Part shown: positions 1,009 through 40,298 of the stretch, piece after piece | How the letters are laid out: the number at the start of each line of letters is the position of its first letter | Numbering within the stretch: the stretch's first letter is position 1 | IMG/VR virus record: IMGVR_UViG_647533160_000006 | Location: 1-41,987 of that record | Source: a virus | Taxonomy: Duplodnaviria; Heunggongvirae; Uroviricota; Caudoviricetes | DNA: 41,987 bases | Direction: 5' to 3' (one strand) | Made by a program: the position numbers and the translations under genes | The notes under the pieces: model-generated | What the model saw: the letters and a program-made list of their open reading frames with translations, nothing else | Databases searched by the model: none | Told to the model about the DNA's origin: nothing

Positions 1009-1083
1009 GTCCTCTTAGTTAAATGGATATAACGAGCCCCTCCTAAGGGCTAATTGCAGGTTCGATTCCTGCAGGGGACACCA
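1009..1083 (+). tRNA. argW: tRNA-Arg (anticodon CCU)
   Basis: 75-nt sequence GTCCTCTTAGTT...GCAGGTTCGATTCCTGCAGGGGACACCA; acceptor stem pairs, anticodon loop CTCCTAA, T-loop GGTTCGATTCC, encoded CCA end. Confidence 0.9.
1069..1083 (+). other. attL core (prophage left junction inside argW 3' end)
   Basis: 15-bp CTGCAGGGGACACCA at the 3' end of argW is repeated exactly at 40284-40298; integrase gene follows ~160 bp downstream. Confidence 0.6.
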
Positions 1084-5798: not shown

Positions 5799-5866
5799 GT
5801 CAATATTTCCTAATCCGATTTGTTGATACCGAAGCCCTGACTGTTCCCGCAGTTGGGGCTTCAACT

Positions 5867-14453: not shown

Positions 14454-14691
<238 letters not shown>

Positions 14692-19121: not shown

Positions 19122-20621
19122 TTAAGTTCTCCGTGCGATGGGCCTGATTGGGGCTGGTATCTTTTTCTCTTTTGGTTTTTTGATGTCGCGCATCATTTTT
19201 GCGAAGCGGCGCATCATGTATGCATAGCGAACGGCGGATAGCACGTCGTCGTTAAGCTTGACGATTTTCCCGTTTTCATCACGGTGATAGAGGCGGAACT
19301 CCTCAAAGAATGGCTCACAGGTGTTGAATACTTTGAAGCGACCATCGAGCATCATGTCGCGCAATTCAGTGATTCCAGGCTCAACAGCATTACCGCCATC
19401 AGGCCATGTCGCATGCTCCTGCAACATCATAAATCCAGCGTCCGCATACTGCCCTTTGAGCTGCTCACCGCCGCCCTTCTCGTGCTGGTTTCCGTCATGG
19501 GGCCATGCGGTTGGCACTTTATGCGCCCATGGTTTAACGGCTCCCCACGCCTGAACAGCTGTCTTTTCTTTCGCCTTCCACACGCGTGAAAGGTAGATTA
19601 TGTCTGCGTCCTTATCCCACCAAAGCTGAACCTGCGCCTGCGGGTGATCCCATCCGAAATCCATACCGCCAATTACGTAGAAGTGATCAGGACACTCGAA
19701 CGGCTGACACTTAATCGTCTCTTCCGGTATCTGGAAGATTCGACCGCTACCCATCGTAGGAATACCGCGAGCACGCGCCTCTCTCTCATGCTCAGGATAG
19801 GATGCGATGATTTGCTCTTTCTGCTCGTCGGTGTAGTGCTCAGCGTCATAGATGGTCATGTTGACCACTTTCTGCGACTTGCTGGGATTCTTCAGGAACT
19901 TGGTAACAACGTCAGACATCCCCATCAGAGGGGTAAACGTCAGAATTGAGAATTGCCCGTATTTGTTGGTACGGGTAAGCCCTTCGCCATAAATGCTGTA
20001 TGGTGGTTCTTCGTCAAACCACACGCCGTGGATTGTGTCACCCTGCCAGCGAGCGCGGCCTTGCGAGTATGGTTTGAAGTAGCAGATTGAAATGCCATCT
20101 TCAACGCCATCAGCCGTGTGATGCTTAACCAGAAGGTGATCAACAAGGTTCGGAAAGAAAGGAGACTTCTTCCAGCTAATGATGTCCTCTTTCGGTATGG
20201 AGCCGTAGCCAGGCTCATCATTCTCTTCGATACGACCGCACAGGATGCGTTGAGTCGTTTTGGTTACAGTCTCGTTTGTCTCTCCACCAATCCAGAAGAC
20301 AACAGGCTCATAGAAACGCTTACCTTTCCACTCACCGCCATATTTACCATCAGCAGGATAGCCTTTTGTTCCCGGATAACGCCCGGTAAGGTGAAACGCG
20401 ACTTCAGCAGCACCAGTAAATGACTTACCAAGCTGGTTACCAGCCATAAAACAGCGCTCTGGATAGTCATGCCCGGCGTCGATGAACTCACGCTGTTTGC
20501 TGTATGGCGTAAATTCATATAGCAGGTGTGTGTTCCGGTAGTTCTCTTCTTCTTCGAGTAGCTCGAGCAATTCTATTTGCTCTTCGTCGCTCAGGTTATC
20601 AAGAATCGCGTCCAGTTCCAC
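19122..20621 (-). CDS. Terminase large subunit (P22 gp2-like)
   Basis: 499 aa, ATPase motif region GNQLGKS, same length as P22 gp2. Confidence 0.85.
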
Positions 20622-21093
20622 GGTTGAATAGCTCCTTGATACGAGAGCGCCGCTTATCGCGATCTCCCTTATCAGGTGTCACGTCTTCAACTTGCGACTG
20701 CTCTTTGAGGCCCAAATCACGGGCGATGATGTTAGCGTTGAGAAGGTCAGCGGCTGCGCCAGAGAATTTCTGGTCGTAGATGACCTGTTCTGCTCGCGTA
20801 ACGACTTCAGATAAATCTTCTCGCAGGCGATATGTGCGCCATGTTTCAAGCGTCACATCAATAAACAGAGTGAGGCCGGTAATGGTCATCGCTCGCATCT
20901 TGGCGATAGGCTCTTGTATCACTTCACCCTGATACGAGAACGCCTTCATCTCCCATAGCGGGTTAGCTTCAACCCACTCGAAGTATTCACAACAAGCAGC
21001 CCACAGCGCCTCGGGCGATTCGAATTTAGGATTTCGCCCATGACTACTGCGGGCCTCCCAAAATCGGTTGCCCTTTGGTGCTGCCATATTCAT
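20599..21093 (-). CDS. Terminase small subunit (P22 gp3-like)
   Basis: 164 aa directly upstream of and overlapping the large terminase gene. Confidence 0.75.
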
Positions 21094-21291
21094 CTCACTT
21101 AGTTGTTATTTCAGGCTGAGGACTCTTTCGCGCCTTCAATCAGTGACTGCTTCAGCAATTCGAGTGTGCCAATCGCCTCGCATAAACTGATTTCACCATC
21201 GTAATCATGGATGACGCTTTCCAGCCTCTCGTATAGCTCTTGAGTAATTGGGAATTTCTTCTCCTTACCCAAATTGATTACGCGGCTCACA

Positions 21292-21534
21292 TCATGCTCC
21301 GGTAGTGAACAGGTCTAACGCTTCCTTCGATTTACGTACCGCTTCGATTGTGCGGGTCGTGATATCTGAATTAGCGCCACCTGACTGGAAGTGAATTTTG
21401 AATAGCTCAAGCTTCAGCTCGTCAGTGCCAATGAATTGAAATGCTTCTTCTGCGGCTGCGTTCTGGTTCATGACCAGCTTGTAAATCTCTAACTGGAATT
21501 TCTGTTCTTCAGTCATGGGAATAATCTCTGCCAT
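21292..21534 (-). CDS. Hypothetical small protein upstream of terminase
   Basis: 80-aa ORF with ACGGAG RBS; family not recognised. Confidence 0.5.
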   Translation of the reverse strand: MAEIIPMTEEQKFQLEIYKLVMNQNAAAEEAFQFIGTDELKLELFKIHFQSGGANSDITTRTIEAVRKSKEALDLFTTGA

Positions 21535-22039
21535 TGTTGGCTCCGTTTATCCGTTAAAAGGGATATCAGTTAAGTTATCCCGTGTAGGGTATAAGCCATT
21601 GTCGAGACCACTCATTGAATGGTCTCTGCAATAACCGATGTCTTTCCATCAGTCCGCCACCACAAATAATCTTTTTTGCCATAAGGCAGGAGGTTCATCT
21701 TTCAGTGGCTGCCAGTGTTATTTCCCCACTTACTGGCTTGGGTTGTTTCGCGGTATTGCCGCAACTGGTGGTGCACAGATTTAGTTAAATCTGTTCTCAC
21801 CTGAACTATCTTTTACATACCCGGATTGTGGGGATGTAAATCACGGTTTCATTATCAAGCCCACCCGTAGATAGGCTTTGTAATGAACTGGCTCTTATCT
21901 CAACGCAGCCCCTTACCGCGCGCAAGATGCTCAATATCAAGCATCAGCAATGAGATGTTTAATCTGGATTCACTCCAGAAGTGAGCACCACCCTGTCTAC
22001 AGAGCCAGATGTGAAGGATGATGAGTAAAATTATCGCTA

Positions 22040-22507
22040 TCATCGAAGGCATTGCGTCCTGATGTATTCCTGAAGCGTTCTCAGTGCTGTTTGGTCGCGG
22101 ATAATTCCGTCCCGGATACCGAGAACGTTTCGTCCAGCAACTGGAGAGAGTTCGACGGTGGCATCATTGCCCATGCCGGAGGCGCTGGAGGTTTCGGCTG
22201 AGGATGGCACAGGGCATTTTCCTTTGACGAGCACCCTGCCACCATTATCAAGCTTGCGCCGAAGAGCATCATTTTCAGCTTTCGCATCAGCTAACTCCTT
22301 CGTGTATTTAGCATCGAGTGCATCAGCATCGCGCTGGCGCTGCTGCATGTCAGTAATGGTGGCAGTCGCCTGCTTCAGCTCTCTGACTTTTTTATCGCGC
22401 TGCTCCTTGTAGGCGATGGCGTTATCACGGTAATGATTAACAACCCACGACAGGCAGACGATGATGCAGATAACCAGAGCGGAGATAATCGCGGTGACTC
22501 TGCTCAT
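22040..22507 (-). CDS. Rz: Spanin, inner membrane subunit Rz
   Basis: [21 protein letters not shown]... matches recalled lambda Rz; start overlaps the endolysin stop (ATGA). Confidence 0.9.
22081..22287 (-). CDS. Rz1: Spanin, outer membrane lipoprotein subunit Rz1 (embedded in Rz)
   Basis: Embedded +1-frame [24 protein letters not shown] with lipobox and Pro-rich segment PPAPPAW. Confidence 0.75.
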
Positions 22508-22980
22508 ACCTCAATCTCTCTGACCGTTCCGCCTGCTTCTTTGAATTTTGCAATCAGGTTGTCAGCCTTATGCTCGAACTGACCATAACCAGCGCCCGGC
22601 AGTGAAGCCCAGATATTGCTGCAACGGTCGATTGCCTGACGGATGTCACCGCGATCAATCATCGGTAAAGCGCCACGCTCTTTAATCTGTTGCAATGCCA
22701 CAGCATCCTGGCTTTTCGGAGAGAAGTCTTTCAGGCCAAGCTGCTTACGATAGGCATCCCACCAACGGGAAAGAAGCTGGTAGCGTCCGGCGGCTGTTGA
22801 TTTGAGTTTGGGGTTTAGCGTGACAAGTTTACGAGGGTGATCGGAGTAATCAGTGAATAGCTCACCACCTACAATGACGTCATAACCATGATTTCTGGTT
22901 TTCTGACGTCCGTTATCAGTTCCCTCTGACCACGCCAGCATATCGAGGAACGCCTTACGTTGATTATTGATTTCCACCAT
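22504..22980 (-). CDS. R: Endolysin R (lambda-type lytic transglycosylase)
   Basis: 158-aa [39 protein letters not shown]... matches recalled lambda R. Confidence 0.9.
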
Positions 22981-23287
22981 CTTCTACTCCGGCTTTTTTA
23001 GCAGCGAAGCGTTTGATAAGCGAACCAATCGAGTCAGTACCGATGTAGCCGATGAACACGCTCGTTATATAAGCGAGATTGCTACTTAGTCCGGCGAAGT
23101 CGAGAAGGTCACGAATGAACCAGGCGATAATGGCACACATCGTTGCGTCGATTACTGTTTTTGTAAACGCACCGCCATTGTATCTGCCGCGAAGGTACGC
23201 CATTGCAAACGCAAGGATTGCCCCGATGCCTTGTTCCTTTGCCGCGAGAATGGCGGCTAACAGGTCATGTTTTTCTGGCATCTTCAT
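22964..23287 (-). CDS. S: Holin S (class I, lambda S107-like)
   Basis: 107-aa [39 protein letters not shown]... with dual-start motif, matches recalled lambda S. Confidence 0.9.
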
Positions 23288-24115
23288 GTCTTACCCCCAA
23301 TAAGGGGATTTGCTCTATTTAATTAGGAATAAGGTCGATTACTGATAGAACAAATCCAGGCTACTGTGTTTAGTAATCAGATTTGTTCGTGACCGATATG
23401 CACGGGCAAAACGGCATGAGGTTGTTAGCGCAGCCTCTTGCCACCCGCTTTCACGAAGGTCATGTATAGAAGGCCGCAGCGTAACTATCACTGATGAATT
23501 CAGGATAGCCAGTGGCTACGGCTCAGTTTGGGTTGTGCTGTTGCTGGGCGGCGATGACGCCTGTACGCATTTGGTGATCCGGTTCTGCTTCCGGCATTCG
23601 CTTAATTCAGCACAACGGAAAGAGCATTTATGGCTCGCATCGCGGGAAAAAGCCCACGGTAGAGAGTCGAACTCTACAAATACTCTTACCTGTTGTGCGC
23701 TACGTTTCGTGGAGCTAACGGCGACGCTAGTACCGGTCTATGCGTCGCACCCTTGAGGGATTTACTAAGGCAACATGCCCGTTGTTACCCACTCAATTGG
23801 ACCCTCCCCGTCGCCATCTGGGTCTAGTCAGGAATCGAACCTGCCGAGGGTACATTTGAATGGGTGCCCATTATTAATCACACCGGGCCAGTGCGCCGAA
23901 TTTGGTTGCGGGGAGTCGGAAGACCCCGTGATTTTGGTTTCTTAGGCCGCCATCAACATCAAATCATCGTTTGCATTTATCTTTGTGGTCAGTTTCTAAA
24001 AACCCGCAAAGTCGCCAACTCTGACGAAAACTATCGTTGTGCTGCCACAACGATAAGAGCACTCGGTGCATTTAAGCCAAGCCCCATAAGGGAGAATGCT
24101 CTTACCTGTTGTGCA

Positions 24116-24150
24116 AACGCAAAAAGCCCCGAGCTATTAACTCAGGGCTT
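24116..24150 (-). terminator. tR'-like intrinsic terminator of the pR' leader
   Basis: Minus-strand read AGCCCTGAG-TTAATAG-CTCGGGGCT followed by TTTTTGCGTTTG, about 30-60 nt downstream of pR'. Confidence 0.7.
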
Positions 24151-24184
24151 TATTTAACGAGTGCATTTATCCATCGTTGAGTCA

Positions 24185-24213
24185 AATTTACCCAACTTTA
24201 TTCAATAAGTCAA
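24185..24213 (-). promoter_or_regulatory. Late promoter pR' (with Q-utilisation region)
   Basis: Minus-strand read TTGACT-17 bp-TAAATT immediately downstream of Q, near-identical to the lambda pR' sequence as I recall it. Confidence 0.75.
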
Positions 24214-24255
24214 TATCATGTCGTTAATATGTTGCCATCCGTGGCAATCATGCCG

Positions 24256-24879
24256 CTAACGTGTGACCGCATTCAAAATGTTGTCTGCAATTGACTCTTC
24301 CTTGTGGCATTGCACCACCAGAGCGTCATACAGCGGCTTAACAGTGCGTGACCAGGTGGGTTGAGTAAGGTTTGGGATTAGCATCGTTACAGCGCGATAT
24401 GCGGCGCTTGCTGGCATCCTTGAATAGCCGACGCCTTTACATCTTCCGCACTCTTTCTCAACAACTCTCCCCCACTGCTCTGTTTTTGCTATATCAACCG
24501 CACGACCTGTACCGTGGCAATCTCTGCATCTTGCGCCCGGCGTCGCGGCACTACGGCAATAATCCGCATAAGCGAATGTTGCGAGTACTTGCAGTACCTT
24601 TGCCTTAGTATTTCCTTCAAGCTTTGCAACGCCACGGTATTTCCCCGATACCTTGTGTGCAAATTGCATCAGATAGTTGATAGCCTTTTGTTTGTCGTTC
24701 TGGCTGAGTTCATGCTTACCGCAGAATGCAGCCATTCCGAATCCTGCTTGTGATTGCGCCATCCCCATAGCAGCCATCACATCAGTACCGGAAAGAGAGT
24801 CAGAAGCCGTAGCCCGTGGTGAGTCGCTCATCATCGGGCTTTTTGGCGAATGAAATTTAGCTACGCTTTCGAGTCTCAT
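24256..24879 (-). CDS. Q: Late antiterminator Q
   Basis: 207-aa MRLESVAKFHSPKSPMMSDSPRATASDSLSGTDVMAAMGMAQ... matches recalled lambda Q. Confidence 0.9.
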   Translation of the reverse strand: MRLESVAKFHSPKSPMMSDSPRATASDSLSGTDVMAAMGMAQSQAGFGMAAFCGKHELSQNDKQKAINYLMQFAHKVSGKYRGVAKLEGNTKAKVLQVLATFAYADYCRSAATPGARCRDCHGTGRAVDIAKTEQWGRVVEKECGRCKGVGYSRMPASAAYRAVTMLIPNLTQPTWSRTVKPLYDALVVQCHKEESIADNILNAVTR

Positions 24880-25423: not shown

Positions 25424-25710
25424 GACTTAATCTTCCCCTCCTTCAGCAGTATCGCCTGCGTCCTGATCACGCCTTCGAGGTGGTAAAGTCTGGCGTCTTT
25501 GTTGTCGAGGTTATGGGTGCGTCGGTCGATTTCATCGTGACACGCGCTACAAGCCCATGCGCCGATCAGGTCGTCAGGCTTCATTCCCGTTCCGCAAATT
25601 CCAGCCATCCGGTAATGTGCCAGAACTGTAGTTTCAGGATTGCCATTGCATATGCCGTAAATACGTACCTGGCATTCTCTGCCGCGAGATTCTTTGCGTA
25701 GGTTAGCCAT
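25420..25710 (-). CDS. YbcO-like nin-region protein (DUF1364, Cys-cluster)
   Basis: 96 aa MANLRKESRGRECQVRIYGICNGNPETTVLAH...CSACHDEIDRRTH; resembles E. coli YbcO from memory. Confidence 0.6.
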   Translation of the reverse strand: MANLRKESRGRECQVRIYGICNGNPETTVLAHYRMAGICGTGMKPDDLIGAWACSACHDEIDRRTHNLDNKDARLYHLEGVIRTQAILLKEGKIKS

Positions 25711-26432
25711 TAAGCAGCCTCCCCTGTTACTTTCAGCATTCCGTTATCGAGCAGCTTTCTGGTCAGCCACTGTTGACCACGCCCGGTGATTTTTGTGGTG
25801 AACGATATCTGTATTCCGTGATTTGTGTTGACCGCTGTTTCTTTCACTGTGAAATAGCCGCGATCCATATATTCCTGCATTGGCACATTGCGCCGGGAAC
25901 CTGAAGCAATAAGGATTTTGTGATCGCGCATCCACGCAAACAGTTTGTTTGGACCAATACCAACAACCTTTGCAAAGTTTCCAATCAAAATTCCGCTGGC
26001 CTCGCCAACGCGATCGGCAAACTCAACTTTAGGTGCGGCAATTGCGAGCTGGTTTTCCAGTTGCATTTTCTGCTCAGCAAGATCAGCAGCAAGGCGCAAC
26101 GCTTCCGGTAGCGTTTTGGGGATATTAACCGCAGCTTCTTCAAGCTCTCGCCAGCGGTCAACAAGGCGAGCGGTAAACTCTGGCGACAACTGGGCAACAA
26201 CGACAATACTGTCTCGCTTACCTTGTTCGCCTTCGAAGACGTAATGCTCGTACTGAACATTGAACCCTAAGTTATTGATTCTTTCGGAAACCTCAATTTG
26301 AGGAAGCCGGATAACACCATTTTTAGCCAGCGTTTCGATGGTACGTTTCACATTGTCATGACGCTTACCCACCAACTCAGCGATTTCAATGCTTGTCATT
26401 TTGATGGCATTGCCATTTATTAACTCATTCAT
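25710..26432 (-). CDS. Rha/Roi-type phage regulatory protein (Ant-like C-terminal domain)
   Basis: 240 aa; N-terminus MNELINGNAIKMTSIEIAELVGKRHDNVKR typical of Rha/ORF6N DNA-binding domains; nin-region position. Confidence 0.6.
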   Translation of the reverse strand: MNELINGNAIKMTSIEIAELVGKRHDNVKRTIETLAKNGVIRLPQIEVSERINNLGFNVQYEHYVFEGEQGKRDSIVVVAQLSPEFTARLVDRWRELEEAAVNIPKTLPEALRLAADLAEQKMQLENQLAIAAPKVEFADRVGEASGILIGNFAKVVGIGPNKLFAWMRDHKILIASGSRRNVPMQEYMDRGYFTVKETAVNTNHGIQISFTTKITGRGQQWLTRKLLDNGMLKVTGEAA

Positions 26433-40210: not shown

Positions 40211-40283
40211 AATAGCGGGTAAAATATTTCTCACATATAAAAAACACCATTCCAATCAATCCCCTGCCTCGTCAAGTAGATGT

Positions 40284-40298
40284 CTGCAGGGGACACCA
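40284..40298 (+). other. attR core (displaced copy of argW 3' end)
   Basis: CTGCAGGGGACACCA identical to argW positions 1069-1083. Confidence 0.6.

Follow-up and report, generated by a model that had tools for sequence, protein, structure and literature searches.

Two conserved hairpins and an empty accessory-gene slot between the lysis and packaging modules of a P22-like prophage

What lies between the lysis cassette and the packaging genes of a P22-like prophage, where about 500 nucleotides had appeared to hold no credible gene? The window analyzed here is a 41,987-nt stretch of Caudoviricetes DNA (IMG/VR record IMGVR_UViG_647533160_000006), and the gap at 21535-22039 is located on its minus strand, together with the late genes, with the lysis module on one side and the packaging module on the other (Table 1). 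In most of the records examined, annotation is absent over most of this stretch, and the same arrangement in Escherichia coli M160133 leaves 365 nt without PGAP annotation; no description of the region was found in the literature searched. Nevertheless, parts of it occur in 2681 of 5426 complete E. coli genomes (about half), and also in the classic phages P22, Sf6, HK620, HK97-like phages and ES18. An earlier note on this DNA proposed three readings: a decayed gene, a regulatory RNA or a packaging-related site. The gap is the junction of the lysis and packaging modules in its unoccupied state, and it is judged rather likely to be composed of a small gene, an empty slot and a non-coding part of the late mRNA carrying two punctuation hairpins. 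A scan of the region for tRNA and tmRNA genes returned none.

Table 1. Features in and around the junction (positions are those of the window)
Feature	Position	Strand	Remarks
Rz	22040-22507	minus	
Rz1	22081-22287	minus	
Small membrane-protein gene, probable (Sf6 gp65 / epsilon34 gp67 / PHROG 11822)	21900-22052	minus	Last lysis-cassette gene
H3, predicted Y-shaped fold	21897-21956	minus	Over 3' end and stop codon of the small gene; local MFE -23.3 kcal/mol
H4, first copy of the hairpin family	21849-21886	minus	UCAUUA-CA-AAGCCUAUC-UACG-GGUGGGCUU-GA-UAAUGA; -18.7 kcal/mol
Empty cassette junction	21877-21885	minus	9-mer CATTACAAA; at the 5' foot of H4
Optional two-hairpin module (H5, H6; predicted)	21767-21848	minus	-11.0 and -11.6 kcal/mol; breakpoints 21837/21779
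Conserved non-coding core	21583-21761	minus	Predicted hairpins H7-H10, and H11
Second cassette entry point	21632-21637	minus	At the 5' foot of H11; empty in the window
H11, second copy of the hairpin family	21596-21634	minus	UUAUUG-CA-GAGACCAUUC-AAU-GAGUGGUCUC-GA-CAAUGG; -17.5 kcal/mol; full form of the hairpin in the earlier note
35-aa ORF	21575-21682	minus	Rejected as a gene
Leader of orf80	21535-21595	minus	Shine-Dalgarno GGAG at 21541-21544; least diverse part of the region
DUF2560/orf80	21292-21534	minus	
59-aa ORF	21111-21290	minus	
Small terminase	20599-21093	minus	
Large terminase	19122-20621	minus	

As had been noted before, the coding strand between Rz and orf80 contains no ORF of 60 aa or more, only one of 50 aa, which does overlap the Rz stop codon (by 13 nt), and one of 35 aa. 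The verdict that neither is credible stands for the shorter of the two and fails for the longer, which probably encodes a genuine small membrane protein with a single pass, as suggested by its homologues. The predicted protein, of 50 aa from the first ATG or 47 aa from the second (22043), matches PHROG 11822 over residues 1-50 of 50 (E = 7.8e-37), and belongs, with nothing in its sequence to set it apart, to the group of Sf6 gp65 and epsilon34 gp67; the gene is annotated in both of these phages and by PGAP. It has 65 close homologues, whose proteins are 94-98% identical, and homologues in Klebsiella, Raoultella and Kluyvera that align without gaps at 44-58% identity (52% for the Klebsiella homologue). 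An alignment of 17 sequences has constant length and 12 invariant residues, and a profile search recovered 27 clusters among 1.84 billion representatives. Moreover, the gene is always found right after the spanin, though holin and endolysin types differ. Codon-position counts in the E. coli pool had pointed to a spurious ORF, a reading overturned by the Klebsiella and Kluyvera homologues. Constraint against the Klebsiella version is only moderate (dN/dS 0.57), and substitutions within the E. coli pool look near-neutral, which is a caveat to the gene call. The last ~35 nt of the gene, which H3 overlaps, are the same in the E. coli and Klebsiella versions, an identity that is not separable from coding constraint.

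The 35-aa ORF, in contrast to the 50-aa ORF, is by its sequence features no gene. It contains internal stop codons in 7 of 28 variants, being interrupted by premature stops in epsilon34, P22 and HK106; its variable sites are distributed over the three codon positions as 7/6/10, it has no codon bias, its upstream sequence contains no Shine-Dalgarno motif, and a PHROG search gave no match at E < 0.05. Together with two plus-strand ORFs of 48 and 57 aa, it was ruled out as coding by premature stops, a 2-nt indel in P22 and non-synonymous changes. The translated search for pseudogene remnants that had been suggested earlier found none: tblastn with the 35-aa and 57-aa ORFs returned DNA-level relatives only, with no distant protein relatives. 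A decayed gene might still be suspected from the annotation of ST64T/L, where the 35-aa stretch forms the N-terminus of "orf118". However, orf118 is an orf80 homologue to which a 34-nt deletion has joined this stretch in frame as an extension, and the premature stops and the lack of distant protein-level relatives also argue against decay. A packaging (pac- or cos-related) site is suggested by the adjoining terminase genes, but the same blocks precede at least four unrelated packaging modules, with P22-type, HK97-type (HNH + cos), Sepvirinae-type or ES18-type genes, at distances varying from 60 to >600 nt, and a sequence comparison of these modules found no fixed relation to one terminase type of the kind expected for pac or cos. 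The pac site of P22 is located within gene 3. Taken together, a decayed gene or a packaging site is extremely unlikely here.

Segment maps against JEP4, Sf6, HK620, L, epsilon34, HK022, HK106, P22 and SEN22 give a different picture of the gap, in which the window is the empty allele of an accessory-gene slot. An intact gene aligning here without gaps in relatives would, according to the earlier note, have indicated a sequencing error or a missed frame. Intact genes are indeed present in relatives, yet as insertions of 0.4-1 kb at two defined points and not as gap-free alignments; hence what the window shows is an unoccupied slot rather than a pseudogene or a sequencing error. At the first entry point (21877-21886), which is filled in about 80% of relatives, the inserted unit consists of an intrinsic terminator and an accessory gene of Rha, KilA-N, T5orf172 or Tad2-like type. 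In these occupied relatives, CATTACAAA is doubled and borders the unit, the junctions reading CATTACAAA / TACCAGGATTTAGCCTCGCATTCGCGGGGCTTTTTT ... stop-NN-CATTACAAAGCC. The inserted terminator is annotated in epsilon34, HK106 and ES18, and a true terminator is missing from the window. An Rz end could be recognised in 91 relatives, of which 11 are as empty as the window, 6 contain short inserts and 74 carry a gene of 144-243 aa, the insert genes clustering as Rha (34), KilA-N (28), T5orf172 (6) and Tad2-like (5); the exact empty junction is present in 16 of the 5426 complete E. coli genomes. Sf6 gene 66 (Phage_gp49_66) and related cassettes enter at the second point (at 21636 in Sf6). Altogether, the slot genes of relatives include Rha, KilA-N, T5orf172/GIY-YIG-like and Tad2-like genes, Sf6 gene 66 and annotated anti-CRISPRs, so that differing genes occupy one syntenic point between conserved flanks, as in a moron or accessory slot. 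These genes adjoin the upstream side of either of two hairpins, H4 and H11, with the stop codon 0-4 nt from the foot. When the borders of all twelve predicted hairpins were considered, ~4-5 of 11 mosaic breakpoints lay within 4 nt, against ~3 expected, and a coincidence of breakpoint and border is claimed for H4 and H11 only. The 9-mer CATTACAAAG, considered as a dispersed recombination signal, is not enriched in the window.

Part of H11 had already been recognised as an inverted repeat, GAGACCA-CTCATTGAA-TGGTCTC, which exists at 21604-21626, two bases to the right of its first approximate placement (21602-21624). A single perfect 7-bp repeat is unremarkable, with a mean of 0.38 per dinucleotide shuffle; the region contains three (P=0.025), and its eight 6-bp repeats compare with an expectation of 1.2 (P=0.003). 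H4 and H11 share a 39-nt shape, in which a lower stem of 5 bp is followed by an internal loop (CA/GA) that is fixed and by a 10-bp upper stem, topped by invariant U-G, U-A and C-G pairs and an A-N-U triloop. This family is present in at least 120 viral contigs, the hairpin being on the strand of the flanking genes, and both upstream and downstream genes vary between instances. A covariance model (R1), built without the E. coli H4, scores H11 at 61.7 bits and recovers the untrained H4 at 33.8 bits (E = 7.8e-7); besides these, the only match in the window is a weak one at 26350-26392, within a coding gene, which was taken as chance. In the ungapped alignment of H11 with the Klebsiella-type H4, 17 of 39 columns are invariant, 98% of cells are paired (86% in shuffles) and covariation is 0.494 against 0.257 in shuffles, with none of 500 as high. 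In the set of 56 distinct family sequences, the six unconstrained stem pairs are nearly always paired, through AU, CG, GC, UA and GU alike, and covariation reaches 0.350 against 0.143 +/- 0.010 in shuffles (0/500). The stems of H4 orthologues from Klebsiella, Kluyvera, Raoultella and metagenomic contigs are likewise compensated, with 96% pairing versus 83% in shuffles (0/500 as high), and H11 is 99.7% paired in 88 relatives. P22 has a compensated pair in H11 (GAGGCCA/TGGCCTC), and Sf6-type phages have another allele at this position, with a fully compensated stem. Regarding the strand, all six transitions at Watson-Crick pairs of H11 retain sense-strand pairing through G-U, and the ~106 G-U cells of the family alignment, including one invariant U-G, would be A-C mismatches if read on the opposite strand.

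The hairpin usually follows a gene closely. A stop codon is located 0-4 nt before the hairpin start in 44 of 82 family instances. H4 starts 13 nt past the stop codon of the small gene, as it does in the Klebsiella types; H11 has no ORF directly before it in the window, and the stop codons of gene 66 in Sf6 and of gp50 in Ss-VASD abut it directly, leaving a gap of 0. From the lysis cassette to the small terminase gene of Klebsiella- and Kluyvera-type phages, the hairpin is the sole intergenic element, and Pectobacterium phage ZF40 has the same hairpin layout. It is absent from phage lambda and is therefore not required for a lambdoid late operon. With Rfam 15, run in gathering and E-value modes, no relevant match was obtained in the window or on the Klebsiella-type loci, and none in the window reached the gathering score; the best hit in 21400-22150, Proteo-phage-1 (18.6 bits versus a threshold of 42), does not overlap the hairpins. 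To judge from these alignments, the family is a conserved RNA structure with clear covariation that is absent from Rfam. The idea of a regulatory RNA is the one of the three early readings to survive, in that the hairpin belongs to a covariation-supported, putatively regulatory family folding on the transcribed strand.

Beyond the small gene, about 300 nt of the gap are non-coding. They include a core common to P22, L/ST64T, HK620, HK022, HK106, epsilon34, BTP1 and others, without coding signal on either strand (P22 has a 2-nt indel), and the optional H5/H6 module, which in many relatives is swapped for a sequence of ~16 nt (a net difference of 58 nt). The region folds with a z of -8.1 on the sense strand and -4.3 on the antisense strand, and among 200-nt segments across 19-25 kb the strongest sense-strand values (-4.8 to -6.6) fall at 21500-21999, the only rival being the Q-S leader at 24000-24199 (-5.5). 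Scored over the core in full, covariation comes out at the shuffle mean, since the copies are ~94% identical; no covariation support was found for H5-H10 and H12 (for H5/H6, there were too few variants), the pairing predicted for H12 is not conserved, and neither is H7, paired in only 70% of cells. Across the twelve predicted hairpins, sense-strand transitions preserving and breaking pairs number 22 versus 13, which is not significant. In one set of 67 sequences, diversity (pi) is 0.0245 for the core and 0.134 for the four-fold sites of the adjacent orf80; it is 0.012 in the orf80 leader, and the non-coding blocks together range over 0.012-0.029 compared with 0.13-0.19 at neighbouring synonymous sites, four- to tenfold lower. 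This low diversity of the linker could reflect recombinational homogenisation or recent spread instead of selection. Outside the hairpins, all core copies are 86-99% identical, a range over which deep conservation does not show, and come from prophages of Escherichia, Shigella, Salmonella and Shimwellia, and a search for diverged copies in one genome per species yielded only copies 95-99% identical, chance matches and one true Kluyvera hairpin.

It could be hypothesized from this that only the small gene is functional, and that the rest is a neutral leftover of moron insertion and deletion that looks conserved through recent spread. The narrow host range and high identity of core copies, the lack of covariation in H5-H10 and H12, and a block that has indels and is partly dispensable are all consistent with such a scenario, which is nonetheless improbable, given that the two hairpins recur with compensated stems in phages of Klebsiella, Kluyvera, Raoultella and Pectobacterium, the flanks of which have no detectable similarity to the window, and given a core diversity 4-10x below that of adjacent synonymous sites in the same genomes. 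It is very unlikely that the region encodes a stand-alone small regulatory RNA that has a promoter and a terminator to itself and acts in trans. The strong predicted structure would suit such an RNA, as would two weak sites on the plus strand, a promoter-like one at 21643-21670 and a terminator-like one at 21672-21693, the latter annotated as a terminator in phage L; however, the sense strand has no promoter-like or terminator-like site, most relatives have a weaker plus-strand -10 (AAGAAT), folding is worse on the antisense strand, and no Rfam family matches. In the promoter and terminator scan, sites were no commoner than in shuffles and none was on the coding strand. H4 and H11 themselves do not resemble intrinsic terminators, being followed by GAUAAUGAAACCG and GCUUAUACCC, respectively, and not by a run of U, and no terminator-like site was found on the minus strand.

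The hairpins are probably mRNA punctuation, acting in processing or stability, and possibly serve as a recombination linker too; such functions are proposed from sequence comparison. Accordingly worded as a model, the non-coding part would be RNA within the late transcript, punctuated by H4 and H11, which, placed at cistron borders, would act as processing sites or as barriers to exonucleases. The conserved internal loop and triloop may be recognised by a host or phage protein, and in this way the hairpins would determine how stable, or how strongly expressed, the lysis, accessory and packaging segments are relative to one another. A by-product would be that homologous recombination could use these common ~40-nt sequences to exchange the content between them.

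The order of cause may be the reverse, with the hairpins being primarily DNA-level recombination sites, single-stranded, cruciform or short linkers, that exchange cassettes and have only incidental effects on RNA; integron attC sites, T4-type PeSL elements and lambdoid "boundary sequences" are the models for this possibility, to which a minor but appreciable weight is given. Cassette borders lie exactly at the 5' feet of H4 and H11, a 9-nt direct repeat borders the inserted unit, many unrelated genes precede the same hairpin, and a "boundary sequence" is annotated nearby in the Sf6 record. In some relatives, alignment to the window also stops at 21632 and picks up again at 21613/21614, in the H11 loop, because a different hairpin allele occupies the H11 position. 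On the other hand, no recombinase accompanies the hairpins, whose neighbour genes vary from phage to phage, and attC-type core sites (RYYYAAC/GTTRRRY) are absent from the sequence. The internal loop, the triloop and the invariant U-G are kept while the stems covary, as would be expected of a folded strand recognised by a protein and not of a homology patch, and in phages without a cassette between the lysis and small terminase genes, the hairpin stands alone at an invariant position. A role of the hairpins at the RNA level is favoured, short of proof, since a hairpin of single-stranded DNA tolerates G-T pairs as well.

Several known systems resemble parts of this junction. Lambdoid late operons carry morons, an example being ant, which precedes the P22-like tailspike gene (Villafane et al. 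2008, PMC2629481). Like these, the slot is a syntenic position between conserved modules; its genes vary, frequently bring a terminator of their own and do not matter for lysis or assembly, and some genomes have it empty. It differs in lying between Rz and the small terminase gene and in having its borders marked not by the flanking genes alone but by a specific conserved hairpin; a slot between Rz and terminase was not found discussed in the literature searched. "Boundary sequences" (bsq) of HK620 and Sf6 were reportedly described by Clark et al. in 2001, with a linker idea of modular phage evolution, and the Sf6 record carries a bsq7 feature. Those are also short conserved sequences at mosaic transitions, thought to guide homologous exchange, but the present element folds into a hairpin whose stems covary and whose unpaired bases are fixed, which points to selection on structure and not on sequence identity alone. 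PeSL (promoter-early stem-loop) elements of T4-type phages, said to have been reported by Arbiol et al. in 2010, are likewise repeated stem-loops beside small accessory ORFs, in hyperplastic regions, with a proposed role in shuffling; the junction hairpin, in contrast, has no promoter, occurs in one or two copies per genome and belongs to the late operon of another phage group. As for integron attC sites, neither core site (RYYYAAC ... GTTRRRY) is present in H4 or H11 and there is no integrase among the called or annotated genes beside the hairpins. Inspection by eye for Chi sites, IHF sites and attC cores revealed none that was convincing.

At the RNA level, the intercistronic RNase III hairpins of phage T7 (R1.1 type) and the sib retroregulator of lambda are the closest in outline, and a hairpin that remains at a 3' end can make the message before it more stable. 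Compared by shape only, they and the junction hairpin alike have two stems separated by an internal loop and lie between the cistrons of a long phage mRNA. The junction hairpin is shorter, with helices of 5 + 10 bp around a symmetric 2x2 loop, and conserves the sequence of its lower stem and loops, which is usually not the case in RNase III sites. Such a stem is also shorter than classical RNase III substrates, an observation that counts against the punctuation model. REP/BIME elements, the extragenic palindromes of enterobacteria, protect upstream mRNA from 3' exonucleases and resemble the junction hairpin as imperfect palindromes right after stop codons with conserved mismatches. However, the hairpin has an unrelated consensus and is not a dispersed chromosomal repeat: E. 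coli genomes that have any carry it at a median of one place, always in a prophage, and the window has two copies.

These observations explain a frequent annotation gap, of which parts recur in about half of complete E. coli genomes, and the probable small membrane protein at the end of the lysis cassette would be an overlooked gene. Late operons are generally treated as one unbroken message, and the hairpin makes post-transcriptional punctuation testable in tractable phages. Hairpins bracketing the slot could also guide searches for accessory and anti-defence genes; those that the slot holds include Tad2-like, Rha and KilA-N genes and annotated anti-CRISPRs. A broader proposal, put forward as speculative and unlikely, is that the 39-nt hairpin is a dedicated, protein-recognised punctuation element of Enterobacterales temperate phages, which would act in one of two ways. 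As an operator or processing signal, it would set the balance of lysis, accessory and packaging expression late in infection; as a cassette-capture site, it would explain why accessory and anti-defence genes of the types just named accumulate here. If true in either form, it would provide a new searchable landmark for accessory and counter-defence genes.

The gap between Rz and orf80 (21535-22039) of this P22-like (Lederbergvirus-type) prophage is ordinary in kind, a junction between modules whose moron slot is empty. Its hairpins H11 and H4 are copies of a structured element that is well supported and found widely among Enterobacterales temperate phages. As the earlier note had it, the coding strand of the gap lacks any ORF of at least 60 aa and has only ORFs of 50 and 35 aa, and the hairpin that it placed at about 21602-21624 is present, at 21604-21626 exactly. 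The 3' end of the tRNA-Arg(CCT) gene lies in a 20-nt direct repeat (1064-1083 and 40279-40298, 90% identical) that probably marks the attL/attR prophage ends. Elsewhere, the hexanucleotide TCTGGC is repeated about 7-8 times at 14501-14546, and the Q-holin interval (23288-24255, ~970 nt), whose coding strand also has no ORF of at least 60 aa, contains a 20-nt direct repeat, AAT(A/G)CTCTTACCTGTTGTGC, at 23679-23698 and 24095-24114.

Features of the prophage and blocks of the gap stretch (positions in the window)
Feature	Position	Strand	Remark
tRNA-Arg(CCT) gene	1009-1083		3' end repeated at 40279-40298
sar RNA	5800-5866
large terminase	19122-20621	minus
small terminase	20599-21093	minus
59-aa ORF		minus	between orf80 and small terminase
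DUF2560/orf80	21292-21534	minus	first gene past gap
35-aa ORF	21575-21682	minus
50-aa ORF	21900-22052	minus	overlaps Rz stop
Rz	22040-22507	minus	Rz1 nested inside
endolysin	22504-22980	minus
holin	22964-23287	minus
Q	24256-24879	minus
block A	22075-21877		includes 50-aa ORF
short block	21885-21844		next after block A
optional module	roughly 21843-21770
core	21761-21583		common to P22, L/ST64T, HK620, epsilon34, HK97-like HK022 and HK106
orf80 leader			last block of gap stretch

Of 5426 complete E. coli genomes, 2681 contain parts of the gap stretch, as do 219 phage records; segment maps against annotated phages resolve the stretch into a mosaic of blocks. At 21877-21886 (the slot), JEP4 (Rha) and HK620 (hkbK/hkbL, KilA-N) carry inserts of 0.7-0.9 kb; Sf6 gene 66 is inserted at 21636. 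Among 91 IMG/VR and GenBank relatives with an anchorable Rz end, the slot is empty as in the window in 11, holds short inserts in 6 and a gene of 144-243 aa in 74, with clusters of Rha (34), KilA-N with P63C (28, often with an hkbL-like partner of 85-93 aa), T5orf172/MUG113 (6, annotated as GIY-YIG), Tad2-like proteins (5) and a 91-aa ORF (4). The Tad2-like (Thoeris anti-defence 2) proteins, of 159-175 aa, come from L127 and four other IMG/VR loci, with a domain match of 89 bits against a cut-off of 25, and their genes lie between Rz and hairpin H4 (21849-21886). The GenBank phage Huey has annotated anti-CRISPRs in the slot, which may be a counter-defence hotspot.

Block A of occupied genomes ends in ...CATTACAAA; a textbook intrinsic terminator (AGCCTCGCATTCGCGGGGCTTTTTT) and the gene come next, and one or two bases past the gene's stop codon CATTACAAAGCC... 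appears again; the window has neither terminator nor inserted gene at the slot. The exact empty junction occurs in 16 complete E. coli genomes, among them M160133, in which PGAP left 365 nt unannotated. Relatives with an intact gene aligning gap-free across the gap were looked for and did not appear: the relatives' genes are insertions, and the window has the empty junction; the comparison gave no sign of a sequencing error or missed frame. After the small gene, occupied genomes (L153 1339-1400; E. coli relatives such as L003 and L005) have the terminator and not the hairpin, which recurs directly after the inserted accessory gene. This puts a terminator within the late operon, at the end of the lysis cassette, and Q-modified polymerase must read through it. 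A 240-aa minus-strand ORF of the window (25710-26432) begins MNELINGNAIKMTSIEIAELVGKRHDNV and by eye resembles Rha/Ant-type N-termini; the prophage's Rha-type gene may sit in the nin region instead of the post-lysis slot.

The hydrophobic 50-aa ORF, which the earlier note did not find credible, is probably a real, narrowly distributed and conserved small membrane-protein gene. A first reading as spurious (codon positions 10/8/12, one internal stop) was overturned by a Klebsiella phage with a 45-aa ORF in the equivalent place, 52% identical, ungapped and with its own GAGG Shine-Dalgarno sequence. Klebsiella, Raoultella and Kluyvera homologues are 44-58% identical to the E. coli protein and constant in length, and the 47-aa form starting at the second ATG gives the best alignment with 45-aa homologues. 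Twelve residues of the family are invariant: a hydrophobic N-terminus that closes with IWLCR, a single Trp, and ARGKGLR at the C-terminus; dN/dS between window and Klebsiella is 0.57. The gene comes last after the spanin in ten further contigs, without exception, while the holin, endolysin and spanin families upstream vary between them, and a profile search returned 27 clusters among 1.84 billion representatives.

The 35-aa ORF was rejected as a gene: its variable sites fall 7/6/10 by codon position (25/7/43, gene-like, in the control orf80), 7 of 28 variants have internal stops (CAA to TAA in P22 and epsilon34, TGG to TAG in HK106), no Shine-Dalgarno sequence was found for it, and Sf6 gene 66 interrupts it. 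In ST64T/L, a 34-nt deletion joins the 35-aa stretch in frame to the orf80 homologue, giving the 'N-terminus of orf118'. Plus-strand ORFs across the core were discarded, since P22 has a 2-nt indel there and most changes are non-synonymous. Translated searches with the 35-aa ORF and a 57-aa plus-strand ORF returned only DNA-level relatives, none at protein level alone, and together with the internal stops this disfavours the decayed gene once suggested; a pseudogene or packaging site is scarcely credible.

In one set of 67 genomes, diversity (pi) is 0.0245 in the core and 0.012 in the leader; for orf80 it is 0.134 at four-fold sites and 0.013 at second codon positions. Block A has 0.02-0.03 versus 0.19 at Rz third positions. 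The gap blocks form a conserved island, whose low diversity fits selection and also homogenisation of a recombination linker. P22 (L008 712-1355) has an extra ~630 nt between conserved core and orf80, unrelated to the window and with a 33-aa 'ORF25' as its sole annotation; this extra stretch opens with a terminator-like hairpin (A-run on one side, U-run on the other) and folds better than shuffles (z = -4.2).

One 7-bp inverted repeat is not significant alone, but the gap as a whole is: its 6-bp inverted repeats number 8 versus 1.2 expected (P=0.003). The sense strand folds at -179.6 kcal/mol versus -132.6 +/- 5.8 in shuffles (z = -8.1), the antisense strand at z = -4.3 only. Across 19-25 kb the strongest sense-strand scores are at 21500-21999, the sole comparable window being the Q-S leader (24000-24199), whose z of -5.5 is what a PR'/6S-type leader should give. 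In its 5' part (20900-21099), the small terminase gene is more stably folded than shuffles on either strand (z about -3.8). Local folding of the gap gave twelve back-to-back stem-loops, H1-H12. Covariation support was not found for H5-H10 and H12, which score at the shuffle mean in copies about 94% identical, and H7 pairs in only 70% of cells. Transitions kept versus broke sense-strand pairing 22 to 13 over all twelve, not significant, and 6 to 0 in H11 alone.

Klebsiella, Kluyvera, Raoultella and metagenomic phages have a hairpin at the H4 place despite little shared sequence downstream of the small gene. These hairpins have a common lower stem (CAUUA/UAAUG) and CA/GA internal loop, and their upper stems differ by compensatory changes (AAGCCUAUC/GGUGGGCUU, AAGUCCUUC/GAGGGGCUU, CAGGCAUUC/GAGUGCCUG, AGCCACUUC/GAGGUGGCU). 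In the H4 alignment 96% of cells pair versus 83% in shuffles (0/500 as high), and 9 pairs changed on both sides, partly from a 1-nt register shift between two length classes. H11 (21634-21596) equals the Klebsiella-type H4 in architecture and aligns with it ungapped, 17 of the 39 columns being invariant. Ten H11 and Klebsiella-type H4 sequences, E. coli H4 excluded, went into a covariance model, which scored H11 at 61.7 and H4 at 33.8 bits (E = 7.8e-7) and found no further credible copy in the 42-kb window; each of the other loci yielded one copy or two, without exception on the gene strand (57-63 bits versus 19-24 on the opposite strand). A pattern search of IMG/VR with the conserved parts only matched at least 120 contigs. 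The six free stem pairs use AU, CG, GC, UA and GU across a set of 56 distinct 39-mers and are unpaired in only 5 of 336 cells; covariation is 0.350 versus 0.143 +/- 0.010 and pairing 96.8% versus 84.6% in shuffles (0/500 as high for each). Sf6, Ss-VASD and others have a different, fully compensated allele at the H11 position. Beside this covariation, neutral leftovers are an improbable account. No Rfam family matches the hairpin and no description was found in the literature searched; the element is apparently undescribed so far.

About 106 G-U cells in the 56 39-mers, among them one invariant U-G pair, indicate that the transcribed strand is the strand that folds. Of 82 instances of the hairpin, 44 start 0-4 nt past a stop codon. 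The genes upstream are DUF2560-like, Rha, KilA-N, hkbL-like, spanin and others; those downstream include small terminases of two types, an HNH gp74-like gene and small ORFs. In L148, L152 and a Kluyvera prophage otherwise without similarity to the window, it is the sole element between lysis cassette and small terminase gene, beginning 0-13 nt past the stop and followed after 8 nt by the Shine-Dalgarno sequence. GenBank phages with the hairpin infect Escherichia, Shigella, Salmonella, Klebsiella, Pectobacterium and Edwardsiella; Pectobacterium phage ZF40 has an equivalent layout, the stop codon abutting the hairpin, and no copy was found in phage lambda. The metagenomic phage L146 has two tandem hairpins of the family, 86 nt apart (1651-1688 and 1737-1775), in the interval from the small membrane-protein gene to the gene after it. 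A trans-acting small RNA is highly improbable. The main rival, that the hairpins are primarily a DNA-level site of cassette exchange, agrees with the assortment of flanking genes and is unlikely; it still ranks ahead of the small RNA, neutral leftovers and a pseudogene or packaging site.

The comparisons establish the anatomy, the empty slot, a small gene that is probably real, and the hairpin family with its transcribed-strand fold and its place at cistron ends. On balance we lean towards a composite reading, in which the hairpins punctuate the late mRNA, are recognised by protein and allow exchange of genes between copies. Within it, the hairpin is very likely a functional folded element, and a specific role in processing or stability is proposed tentatively. 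The hairpins would act as a processing site or exonuclease barrier, with the fixed internal loop, invariant U-G pair and triloop as a putative protein recognition surface, and their shared sequence would let homologous recombination swap the genes that lie between them.
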